Of a DNA stretch of 64,000 nucleotides, positions 36,530 to 37,728 are shown piece after piece. Below the pieces are notes generated by a model. That model was not told the DNA's origin. It searched no databases and saw only the letters and a list, made by a program, of their open reading frames with translations. Both the position numbers and the translations under genes were made by a program. This stretch comes from an uncultured Gemmatimonas sp. (GTDB taxonomy: Bacteria > Gemmatimonadota > Gemmatimonadetes > Gemmatimonadales > GWC2-71-9). The stretch is taken from assembly GCA_964619465.1 (NCBI GenBank), contig CAZUES010000005.1, positions 12,182-76,181 of the forward strand, read 5' to 3'. The stretch's first letter is position 1; each line of letters starts with the position of its first letter.

Positions 36530-36558
36530 TTGACAAACCCGAATAAAAACCGAAGATT
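36530..36558 (+). promoter_or_regulatory. candidate sigma70-type promoter for the micro-ORF/radical SAM pair
   Basis: A perfect -35 TTGACA (36530-36535), a 17-nt spacer, then AAGATT (36553-36558). The -10 is weak. Confidence 0.3.
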
Positions 36559-36589
36559 GGGCGAAGTTCCTGGCCACGGAAGCCCGATC

Positions 36590-36706
36590 ATGCCCGTCGA
36601 ATCTGCCAAACCGTCGGTTCGCGTCTGCCCCGAGTGTGCCGGTCCGATCATCCACGGCTCGGCCTGCGTGTCGTGCCTCCAGTGCGGCTGGGCCCGATGC
36701 GGTTAG
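36590..36706 (+). CDS. 38-aa zinc-ribbon micro-protein (six Cys)
   Basis: Found by manual reading; it is absent from the track. The sequence is MPVESAKPSVRVCPECAGPIIHGSACVSCLQCGWARCG. GGAAG lies 8 nt upstream of the ATG, and about 30 of 38 wobble positions are G/C. The 3' end overlaps the downstream ATG by 10 nt. Confidence 0.45.
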   Translation: MPVESAKPSVRVCPECAGPIIHGSACVSCLQCGWARCG

Positions 36707-37728
36707 CCACCGACCAGATCGGGCTCGAGCTTCCGTCCGGTCGGGCGCCGCTACCCACCCTGGACCGGCGCCAGCGCGGCACCGACTTCATCGGGATGCA
36801 GGTCACCCGGGTCGCCAATGCGCCGGAGTCGACCGGGATGCCGTTCTGGTCGATCAATCCCTATATCGGGTGCGAGTTCGGTTGCAGCTACTGCTACGCG
36901 CGCGACACCCACCGGTGGACTTCGGAACGAAACGACATGGCGCAGGAGCGCTTGCCGACCGAGGAGTTCGAGCGCCGCATCTTCATCAAACAGAACGCCG
37001 CGCTGATGCTGCAGCAGACCCTGGACCCCGCCAAAGTCGGGCAAAGCCCCATTGCAATCGGGACGGCCACCGATCCGTATCAGCCCGCCGAGCGGCGCTT
37101 CGGCGTGACCCGGTCGATCCTGGACGCCTTCCGCGGCTACCGAGGGCTCTCGATCCATATCACGACCAAGTCGCCCCTGGTGGCGCGCGACATCGATCTG
37201 CTGCTCGAACTCAAGCAGCGTCATCGGATTTCCGTGAACATCTCGCTCATCTCGCTCGATGCCGATCTGATCCGCCGGCTCGAGCCCAAGACCCCGCTGC
37301 CGCACGCCCGGATGCGCGCCTTGCGTGCGCTGGCCGAAGCCGGAGTCGATGCGGGGCTGCTGATTGCCCCGATCATCCCCGGCCTGACGGACAGCTGGGG
37401 AGCGCTTGGTGGACTGATGGCCGCGGCGAAGGAGGCCGGGGCGCGTTATGCCGACGGGTCTGCGCTCAGACTCGGACCGGTGGCGCGTTCCGGTTTTCTT
37501 CCCGCCTTAGAGCGTGAGTTTCCCAAACTGCTCGATCGCTACCGGCGCCGCTATGCACGCCGGCACGACGCCGGACGAGACTATCTCGAGGCCCTGGCCA
37601 AGCGACTCCGCACGCTCCAGCGGATCCATGGATTTCCGGAGAACTTCACCTACCGCTCGACTCGAGCGCGGCCATCCGCCGGACCACGCGGCTCGACCGT
37701 CCAGCCCTATCTCACCTTGATGCCGTAA
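36697..37728 (+). CDS. radical SAM protein (SplB/PA0069/Rv2578c-like; function unknown)
   Basis: The CxxxCxxC cluster motif sits in MPFWSINPYIGCEFGCSYCYARDTH. There is no C-terminal Cys-rich (SPASM-like) region. Start is uncertain (36697, 36634 or 36796). Confidence 0.8.
   Translation: MRLATDQIGLELPSGRAPLPTLDRRQRGTDFIGMQVTRVANAPESTGMPFWSINPYIGCEFGCSYCYARDTHRWTSERNDMAQERLPTEEFERRIFIKQNAALMLQQTLDPAKVGQSPIAIGTATDPYQPAERRFGVTRSILDAFRGYRGLSIHITTKSPLVARDIDLLLELKQRHRISVNISLISLDADLIRRLEPKTPLPHARMRALRALAEAGVDAGLLIAPIIPGLTDSWGALGGLMAAAKEAGARYADGSALRLGPVARSGFLPALEREFPKLLDRYRRRYARRHDAGRDYLEALAKRLRTLQRIHGFPENFTYRSTRARPSAGPRGSTVQPYLTLMP

Follow-up and report, generated by a model that had tools for sequence, protein, structure and literature searches.

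A six-cysteine mini-protein homologous to the class II ribonucleotide reductase tail precedes a spore photoproduct lyase-like radical SAM gene in a predicted LexA-controlled operon of Gemmatimonadota

Within the window (the whole 64,000-nucleotide stretch of DNA analysed, numbered from its first letter), the forward strand carries a 38-codon micro-ORF that runs into a radical SAM gene, and the two together are probably a two-gene operon under predicted LexA repression. The features of the locus are as follows.

36530..36535, + strand: −35 hexamer TTGACA, read directly.
36539..36554, + strand: CCGAATAAAAACCGAA, a direct repeat (CCGAA-N6-CCGAA) flanked by the −35 and −10 hexamers and predicted, from its conservation and its sharing with lexA and recA, to be a LexA operator.
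36553..36558, + strand: −10-like hexamer AAGATT, 17 nt after the −35, read directly.
36578..36582, + strand: GGAAG, Shine-Dalgarno-like, 7 nt before the ATG, read directly.
36590..36706, + strand: micro-ORF, gene for a 38-aa, six-cysteine predicted zinc ribbon, a free-standing NrdJ-tail-like module, assigned from translation, conservation, the match to the NrdJ C-terminus and AlphaFold2.
36697..37728, + strand: spore photoproduct lyase (SPL)-like (COG1533/SplB-type) radical SAM gene, 343 aa, assigned from Pfam, NCBIfam, AlphaFold2 and Foldseek.
36871..36894, + strand: CEFGCSYC, the CxxxCxxC [4Fe-4S] motif, containing the sole cysteines of the radical SAM protein, with Cys59/63/66 invariant.

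Translation of 36590–36706 (+) yields MPVESAKPSVRVCPECAGPIIHGSACVSCLQCGWARCG*, in exact agreement with the six-cysteine peptide of the original prediction, which runs from ATG 36590 to TAG 36706. The GGAAG Shine-Dalgarno sequence, the 10-nt overlap with a radical SAM start at ATG 36697 (which shares the frame of the ORF ending at 37728) and the CEFGCSYC cluster described there are present as well. The cysteines of the micro-ORF occupy positions 13, 16, 26, 29, 32 and 37, the last followed only by a glycine and the stop codon. The perfect −35 that had been noted is indeed TTGACA, but a simple consensus sigma-70 scan called no promoter at the operon, nor was a terminator called; the scan misses the promoter because its −10 (AAGATT) is weak. 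Among relatives within the genus, TTGAC[AG] or CTTGAC is kept at an equal distance from the operator repeat. At the −10 position, relatives carry GATATT or TATATT with the spacing unchanged.

Judged by comparison among genomes, the micro-ORF is a real gene under protein-level selection. Searching by tblastn upstream of radical SAM orthologues, as had been suggested, we found the peptide core C-P-[ED]-C-x9-C-x2-C-x2-C-G-W-x2-C-G-stop directly upstream of the orthologue in 29 of the 30 relatives' loci, the sole exception (L019) being a locus cut by a contig end, and in further Gemmatimonadota loci with the micro-ORF the radical SAM gene lies downstream on the same strand in 78/80. Across the 29 sequences compared, the micro-ORF frame alone of the six is open in every one (29/29), at a mean amino-acid identity of 63% (35–50% in the other frames), and 11 of its columns are invariant. 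Codon position 3 varies in 27/28 columns and positions 1 and 2 in 16–17/28, and pN/pS is ~0.46 overall; neither a disrupted frame nor equally frequent synonymous and nonsynonymous changes, which had been named as signs of a spurious ORF, are seen. Ten residues (six Cys, P, G, W and G) are invariant across two families, and more than one synonymous codon is used at every one of them except the single-codon Trp. The stop codon of the micro-ORF is overlapped by a start codon of the radical SAM frame in about 65 of 84 non-redundant loci, which implies that translation of the radical SAM gene depends on translation of the micro-ORF, and on this ground the micro-ORF could be taken for a regulatory upstream ORF, acting solely through translational coupling or attenuation, with an irrelevant product. 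However, a pure upstream ORF would not be so constrained as to retain ten residues through synonymous codon turnover, and the peptide is part of a wider family of stand-alone proteins, so that we consider this explanation highly improbable. These locus counts and overlapping starts bear out the pairing, put forward in the original prediction, of a conserved, translated-looking zinc-ribbon gene with the radical SAM gene.

In all cases, the micro-ORF heads the genes that follow the operator. The operator repeat, CCGAA-N6-CCGAA, is kept ahead of the micro-ORF in every relative's locus for which upstream sequence exists and, in the form TTCGG-N6-TTCG, precedes lexA in 29/29 Gemmatimonadales genomes. 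Since, in the source genome, the repeat also precedes lexA, recA, an imuA-like gene, uvrB and two DinB-family genes, it is probably a LexA box, and the operon, whose promoter it overlaps, is probably SOS-regulated. The predicted operator under the '−35' region was absent from the original prediction. The repeat resembles the Alphaproteobacteria-type LexA box GTTC-N7-GTTC (PMC8565304) in being a direct repeat with 11-bp periodicity, and TTCGG-N6-TTCGG includes TTC-N8-TTC, many sites reading GTTCGG; however, the conserved core here is TTCGG, not GTTC. Our literature search returned no report of a TTCGG-type LexA box for Gemmatimonadota, for which the repeat provides a candidate. SOS control is already on record for splB-like genes: splB/COG1533 and Rv2578c are LexA targets elsewhere (PMC8565304, PMC3323433, PMC3381160), the splB-like COG1533 SOS genes from work of the Erill group (PMC3323433, PMC8565304) and Rv2578c from LexA ChIP-seq in M. 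tuberculosis (PMC3381160).

The peptide matches positions 726–759 of the 759 in NCBIfam model NF006417 (E 3.7e-5), and a search of the whole genome with this model matches the micro-ORF as well as NrdJ, the gene for which lies on a different contig. The C-terminus of the genome's own NrdJ, ...CPDCSSQLEYAEGCAKCHVCGFSECG*, has a cysteine spacing identical to that of the micro-ORF, and the sole PHROG match of the window's peptide is to an RNR-tail PHROG. By these matches, the micro-ORF peptide is a homologue of the C-terminal ~30 residues of NrdJ, the class II (B12-dependent) ribonucleotide reductase (RNR). Both carry C-x2-C-x9-C-x2-C-x2-C-x4/5-C at the extreme C-terminus and have the CP[DE]C and CG[WFY]xxCG motifs in common, and the micro-ORF spacing equals that of C920...C945 in NrdJd. 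The homology to the NrdJ tail did not figure in the original prediction. In NrdJ, the six-cysteine array holds zinc and ferries electrons into the active site; in NrdJd, all six cysteines are required for tail-mediated turnover, four of them being predicted zinc ligands and two a redox pair (PMC5704485). By analogy, Cys13/16/29/32 of the mini-protein are predicted zinc ligands and Cys26/37 a predicted redox pair. The cysteine-rich domain (CRD) of NrdJ is in some cases encoded by a gene of its own, nrdJb (Loderer et al. 2017, PMC5704485), a precedent for a module encoded away from its enzyme. The micro-ORF has the terminal six-cysteine array of an NrdJ CRD but comprises only ~30 of its residues, the other ~150–220 aa, including the TSCPD domain, being missing (Pfam gives no TSCPD match in the 38-aa protein); it also adjoins the gene of a radical SAM enzyme instead of that of an RNR catalytic subunit, and stands under a LexA-type operator.

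A protein that copies the NrdJ tail so closely, and is encoded first after the operator in genomes that all have a tailed NrdJ, might instead be an independent SOS effector that merely sits in the same operon, for example an NrdJ-tail mimic that modulates or supplements RNR, and hence dNTP supply, during damage, or a small SOS checkpoint protein. Electron transfer by the NrdJ tail is possible in trans between subunits (PMC5704485), and at one locus (L066) the micro-ORF occurs with DinB_2 genes and with no radical SAM gene within 2.5 kb. However, the linkage to the radical SAM gene is very tight, with overlapping stop and start codons, and a LexA-type repeat was looked for upstream of nrdJ and not found. 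Moreover, a separately expressed CRD failed to reconstitute truncated NrdJd (PMC5704485), and the mini-protein lacks a membrane segment such as typical SOS division inhibitors have. We consider an independent effector improbable.

AlphaFold2 models residues 11–38 of the mini-protein at a pLDDT of about 90 (89–91) as a zinc-ribbon-like fold, with two CxxC knuckles and a sheet of three short strands (19–23, 26–29 and 35–37). The PDB structures that Foldseek places nearest are zinc ribbons (TFS4/TFIIS-type, ribosomal L37Ae/L43-type and the PARP-1 zinc finger), with an rmsd of 1.5–1.9 Å over 28–30 residues and E about 1, at which the matches are not significant; a PDB sequence search with the peptide gave chance CPEC matches only. 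These nearest folds are nucleic-acid-associated, as would suit a zinc-ribbon subunit that binds nucleic acid and recruits or positions the radical SAM enzyme, and in some lineages DinB_2 enzymes too, on damaged DNA, the six cysteines then being structural (e.g., one zinc plus a disulfide or a second metal). Phage copies of the module in DNA-metabolism modules beside a ParB/MT-A70 methylase would fit such lesion targeting, as would the precedent of small non-catalytic SOS recruiters such as ImuB-C, which act with SplB-like enzymes (PMC3765255). However, beyond the insignificant Foldseek scores, the folded core is poor in basic residues (one to three K/R), and the closest sequence relatives are the RNR tails, which have been shown to act in electron transfer, not DNA binding (PMC5704485). 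On balance, we regard a lesion-targeting role as unlikely.

The radical SAM protein scores 50.6 bits against the Pfam Radical_SAM model (PF04055; gathering cut-off 29.5), contains CxxxCxxC and is a member of that family. Its best NCBIfam matches are PA0069 (NF033668; 208.5 bits, cut-off 360) and Rv2578c (NF038135; 207.5 bits, cut-off 430). The PA0069-type label of the original prediction therefore stands in that PA0069 is among the best matches, but the score falls under the curated cut-off; by these scores, the enzyme is a branch related to but distinct from the PA0069 and Rv2578c families. With these SOS splB-like COG1533 genes it has in common the broad radical SAM group and a predicted LexA site upstream. 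The SPL model TIGR04070 gives 25.4 bits (cut-off 400), the Pfam SPL match is weak, and a PDB sequence search with the enzyme gave no match. The predicted structure (AlphaFold2, pLDDT 86) has an SPL-like fold, with SPL 4FHF/4FHC as the top Foldseek matches (TM 0.59 over about 300 columns, E 1.5e-7), at 16% sequence identity. The region just after 36697, i.e., the N-terminus, is conserved among the orthologues. Cys59/63/66 are the only cysteines of the window's protein, and thus the catalytic cysteine of SPL, the hydrogen-atom donor C140/C141 outside the cluster (C140 in the SPL of known structure, of which the matched PDB entries are mutants), is absent. Most orthologues that have the partner likewise contain no conserved extra cysteine. 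Spore formation is not known for the host.

A small cysteine-rich ORF directly upstream of a radical SAM gene is the classic sactipeptide/ranthipeptide layout, and the RiPP maturases SuiB and SkfB are among the weaker fold matches of the enzyme, as expected if the micro-ORF encoded a cysteine-rich RiPP-type precursor peptide modified by its neighbour. However, the best fold match is SPL, the three cysteines of the enzyme include none of the SPASM/twitch type, and Pfam finds neither a SPASM nor an RRE domain. The peptide itself has a predicted zinc-ribbon fold (pLDDT about 90) and homology to a structural zinc site of NrdJ, and it lacks a leader/core architecture; no protease or transporter gene accompanies it, and its operon is of predicted SOS type. 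The original prediction had already judged a peptide-substrate role less likely, and we agree, finding it very improbable.

Among the roles that had been proposed, that of a redox partner is the best supported. In our best reading, to which we give a probability of roughly 0.45, the mini-protein would partner the radical SAM enzyme as a cysteine or redox subunit, encoded in a predicted LexA-controlled operon in which the second gene is translationally coupled to the first. DNA damage would lift LexA repression at the CCGAA-N6-CCGAA operator, and the mini-protein and the enzyme would then be produced in coupled amounts. Cys 13, 16, 29 and 32 would hold zinc, while Cys26 and Cys37 would form a redox-active pair that docks at the radical SAM active site, supplying the thiol chemistry absent from the enzyme by hydrogen-atom donation to the substrate radical and/or delivery of reducing equivalents, much as the tail of RNR does for its own active site. 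The canonical chemistry of SPL is redox-neutral. A thiol/disulfide couple is unable by itself to reduce the radical SAM [4Fe-4S]2+ cluster, so any redox role would have to lie at the level of the substrate or product radical. Within this scheme, we infer zinc binding, the physical interaction, the redox or hydrogen-donor role and the DNA lesion repaired. That a radical SAM DNA-repair enzyme has handed its catalytic or redox cysteines over to a distinct zinc-ribbon subunit of 38 residues, derived from the RNR tail, is conceivable, if rather doubtful.

SplB-like COG1533 genes recur in bacterial SOS regulons, including Rv2578c of M. tuberculosis; the mini-protein is a first candidate partner for an uncharacterised radical SAM repair enzyme, and its homology to an electron-shuttling cysteine array suggests that the chemistry of this enzyme may need an external thiol. 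The small partner and its RNR-tail ancestry appear to be undescribed so far: in the literature on SOS splB-like genes we found no small zinc-ribbon partner, the partners reported being ImuB-C, DUF4130 and UDG. If the enzyme has indeed handed its cysteines over to the mini-protein, this cysteine shuttle would be a portable module for unrelated radical enzymes (B12-dependent RNR and SPL-like radical SAM), and a reductive or hydrogen-atom-dependent repair reaction would be suggested for the SOS SplB-like enzymes.

The micro-ORF partner is found in only two (f1 and f3) of the twelve Gemmatimonadota families sampled. In the sister family f2, a radical SAM orthologue is present in 4/8 sampled genomes, and 4/4 of these keep the operator and have no micro-ORF, indicating that the partner is lineage-specific and dispensable for the enzyme family. 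The proposal of a conserved partner for the family thus holds in f1 and f3 but not for these four f2 orthologues. All four share one extra cysteine (alignment column 381) and three share two more, a weak hint of compensation for the absent partner, and only a hint because it is a single clade contrast representing one evolutionary event. A DinB_2/mycothiol-S-transferase-like gene, suggestive of thiol chemistry, lies between the micro-ORF and the radical SAM gene in about 7/80 loci. The upstream neighbour in the window is a Uma2 gene (Pfam E 3.9e-24), from which a DNA-related role had originally been suspected. We rejected Uma2 as a functional neighbour because upstream regions differ among relatives and the gene is not conserved beside the pair; the link to DNA rests instead on the predicted SOS regulation.

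A profile search recovered 1116 representatives of the six-cysteine module at E <= 1e-3, and among the best 150 of these most are stand-alone proteins of 30–100 aa and a few are NrdJ, so that the six-cysteine tail is no longer an appendage peculiar to RNR but also forms a family of free-standing mini-proteins. Some of the stand-alone proteins are on phage-like contigs. In a metagenome scan for low-GC relatives, the stand-alone copies were phage-like and the others ordinary NrdJ tails; neither RNR nor this radical SAM gene lay near the six-cysteine mini-proteins on phage-like contigs, so the module is not tied to radical enzymes, and the scan gave no support for a general link between mini-protein and radical SAM enzyme outside Gemmatimonadota. 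Should the radical SAM enzyme have handed its cysteines over to the mini-protein, the phage copies may act likewise. One sequence, P0147, was considered as a Rosetta-stone fusion and rejected, since it is partial and garbled in the region of the fourth cysteine and is probably a frameshift artefact. A protein homology search with a 49-aa reading of the micro-ORF returned two unnamed proteins only, and among the micro-ORF orthologues one had been called an RNR alpha chain by IMG automatic naming.

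The original prediction described, in the window, a micro-ORF for a 38-residue, six-cysteine zinc-ribbon mini-protein overlapping the start of a radical SAM gene (rSAM; 36697-37728, 343 residues). Its coordinates, peptide, GGAAG and TTGACA elements, 10-nt overlap and CEFGCSYC motif all agree with the sequence and translations.

36530-35, + strand: TTGACA -35 element, read from the sequence
36539-36554: window copy of the direct repeat CCGAAYAAAnACCGAA
7 nt 5' of the micro-ORF ATG, + strand: GGAAG Shine-Dalgarno-like motif, read from the sequence
ATG 36590 to TAG 36706, + strand: micro-ORF; product by translation, MPVESAKPSVRVCPECAGPIIHGSACVSCLQCGWARCG
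ATG 36697, + strand: rSAM start, in the rSAM frame, with a 10-nt overlap with the micro-ORF; the CEFGCSYC cluster motif lies further on

The gene 5' of the micro-ORF belongs, by family search, to the Uma2 family, as the original prediction had it. The gene 3' of rSAM lies on the opposite strand, so that micro-ORF and rSAM form a two-gene unit.

rSAM was found in 37 of 41 related genomes. Of the 30 loci fetched, 29 have a counterpart of the micro-ORF upstream of the orthologous rSAM gene, which tblastn had been proposed to reveal, with the peptide match directly 5' of rSAM (E 1e-8 to 1e-26); at L019, the one locus without a match, the contig breaks off. The peptide core, C-P-[ED]-C-x9-C-x2-C-x2-C-G-W-x2-C-G-stop, is constant in length across loci and has ten invariant columns (six Cys, Pro, Gly, Trp, Gly), whose residues, except Trp, are each encoded by two to four synonymous codons. 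When all six frames of the stretch were compared in 29 sequences, only the micro-ORF frame was open in all 29, and amino-acid identity was highest in it (0.63 vs 0.35-0.50 in the others). Of the 28 codons, 27 vary at the third position, vs 16-17 at the first and second, and pN/pS is ~0.46 overall; relatives thus display neither the frame disruption nor the lack of synonymous excess that would have spoken against a gene. Since the constraint is residue-specific, it is highly improbable that the micro-ORF is a purely regulatory uORF.

A scan of GTDB species genomes yielded 337 confirmed matches, the best 80 of which come almost all from Gemmatimonadota MAGs and have rSAM downstream on the same strand in 78 loci. 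In ~65 of 84 non-redundant loci, a start codon in frame with rSAM lies 1-25 nt into the end of the micro-ORF, overlapping its stop, an arrangement of the sequence typical of translational coupling. In a phylum-wide draw, the peptide matched 124/125 genomes of the window's family and 3/3 of a second micro-ORF-carrying family, most matching genomes having two matches, the strong one within a short ORF and the weaker at the end of a ~850-aa open frame, which is NrdJ, the class II (B12-dependent) ribonucleotide reductase (RNR). Four of the genomes counted (G089, G128, G183 and G208) are flagged as unpublished; without them, the picture is the same. Public records that call the micro-ORF name it 'hypothetical protein' (e.g., MBK8003491.1), and one IMG record of an orthologue reads 'ribonucleoside-diphosphate reductase alpha chain'. 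In the literature, we found no earlier description of a conserved mini-protein partner of rSAM.

Several genus relatives (L006, L007, L009-L011) lack an ATG for the micro-ORF; in frame, they offer only a GTG or TTG start, ~6-10 nt past the -10 box, and the N-terminal part of the reading frame contains a second operator copy. Initiation there may be leaderless or alternative. An apparent fusion, P0147 (194 aa), joins a micro-ORF-like N-terminus, disrupted around the fourth Cys, to an rSAM N-terminus; a frameshift or an assembly error is a more probable origin for it than a natural fusion.

Among family models, the peptide has one informative match, to the final 34 positions of the NCBIfam B12-dependent RNR model (E 3.7e-5), and a genome search with this model picked up the micro-ORF alongside NrdJ and a second RNR-like gene. 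In this genome, NrdJ terminates in ...SCPDCSSQLEYAEGCAKCHVCGFSECG and a stop, with Cys spacing and terminal CG identical to those of the micro-ORF. No earlier description of the mini-protein's descent from, or kinship with, this six-Cys tail was found in the literature. Loderer et al. studied the array in NrdJd, where it binds zinc and tail-driven turnover needs all six cysteines; in their model, cysteines 1, 2, 4 and 5 are Zn ligands and 3 and 6 the redox pair (PMC5704485). By analogy, Cys13, Cys16, Cys29 and Cys32 of the mini-protein would be the Zn ligands and Cys26 and Cys37 the active pair. In the AlphaFold2 model, residues 11-38 reach pLDDT ~90 and include three short strands; among solved structures, zinc ribbons come closest, at E-values that are non-significant, as expected for 28 residues. 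That the zinc-ribbon mini-protein serves to target DNA or lesions seems doubtful.

Among 1.84 billion representatives, a profile search gave 1116 matches at E <=1e-3. The best 150 are mostly stand-alone proteins, 30-100 aa long, that end in the six-Cys array; other matches are NrdJ proteins carrying TSCPD and RNR barrel domains, and one low-GC stand-alone group sits in phage-like contigs, beside ParB/MT-A70 methylase and terminase genes, with no RNR or rSAM nearby. The six-Cys module is therefore a portable mini-domain; the pairing with this rSAM is particular to Gemmatimonadota. The low-GC proteins (L158-L206, from digester metagenomes; e.g., L163:3953-4135) end in ...YVYCPECGxxVIHESGCVxCPSCGWGxCG-stop; their genes lie between the ParB/MT-A70 methylase and terminase/portal genes, in two copies on some contigs.

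Alignment of upstream regions revealed the conserved direct repeat 5' of the micro-ORF; in genus relatives, it sits between -35 and -10, and a further copy often follows downstream. In the window's genome (G000), the same repeat, in either orientation, precedes lexA and the following genes, the uvrB copy being slightly degenerate.

C23:~31093: repeat at recA
C1:233533: repeat at an imuA-like RecA-fold gene
C23:64181: repeat at uvrB
C16:79533 and C83:3036: repeats at two DinB-family genes
L031 and L129-L156: lexA promoters compared

TTCGG-N6-TTCG occurs in the lexA promoter of 29/29 Gemmatimonadales genomes, often in two tandem copies and usually between CTTGCG and a TACTTT-like -10, which, as a sequence pattern, is that of an autoregulated LexA operator. 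We propose the TTCGG-N6-TTCGG direct repeat as a candidate LexA box of Gemmatimonadales, resembling the GTTC-N7-GTTC direct repeat of Alphaproteobacteria (quoted in PMC8565304); no paper on a Gemmatimonadota LexA motif was found. The predicted small SOS regulon comprises lexA, recA, the imuA-like gene, uvrB, DinB-family proteins and the micro-ORF/rSAM operon. SOS control of splB-like COG1533 genes is documented (PMC3323433, PMC8565304; for Rv2578c, PMC3381160), so that SOS regulation of this enzyme group agrees with prior knowledge and is not new. An independent SOS effector, acting for example on NrdJ, is an improbable role for the mini-protein. An Rce1-like CAAX protease gene (G000 C1:233599-234402 = L033:2026-2829) is divergent from the imuA-like gene and shares its intergenic LexA-type repeat.

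rSAM exceeds the Pfam Radical_SAM threshold and scores ~208 bits on each of the PA0069 and Rv2578c NCBIfam models, well below both cut-offs; with the model for spore photoproduct lyase (SPL), it reaches 25 bits. The structures closest to its AlphaFold2 model (pLDDT 86) are SPL 4FHF/4FHC (E ~1e-7, TM 0.59). Its only three cysteines all lie within the cluster motif, and the H-atom-donor cysteine of SPL therefore cannot be present; most partner-carrying orthologues likewise lack a conserved extra cysteine. The original interpretation of the mini-protein is supported in part. We tentatively favor, at a probability of roughly 0.45, a Zn-ribbon subunit whose free cysteine pair gives thiol chemistry to an SPL-like enzyme lacking its own. 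The pair would donate an H atom to the product radical and/or deliver reducing equivalents, paralleling the service of the homologous tail to RNR. Because the SAM cluster itself cannot be reduced by a thiol pair, any such role would concern the substrate. That the peptide is instead a RiPP substrate of rSAM is very hard to credit, because SPASM and RRE are absent from rSAM, the peptide is a folded Zn-site homologue and the operon has an SOS context.

Four rSAM orthologues of the sister family f2 (L117-L120) have the TTCGG repeat directly upstream, and the micro-ORF is absent at all four loci; the partner is thus a lineage-specific addition. One extra Cys in the C-terminal helical region (alignment column 381) is common to all four, and two more are common to three of them; none of these occurs in partner-carrying orthologues. 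In ~7 of the best 80 loci, a DinB_2/mycothiol-S-transferase-like gene, sometimes with others, lies between micro-ORF and rSAM. The operator is invariably followed first by the micro-ORF. Such thiol-transferase-like insertions fit thiol chemistry, by association only. The insertion is seen in one Gemmatimonadota subclade (L068, L069, L071, L072, L078, L079; e.g., L069:3595-4110), L069 also carrying a PEP-mutase-like gene; at L066 (L066:2856-3293), rSAM is absent within 2.5 kb of the micro-ORF and there are two DinB_2 genes.
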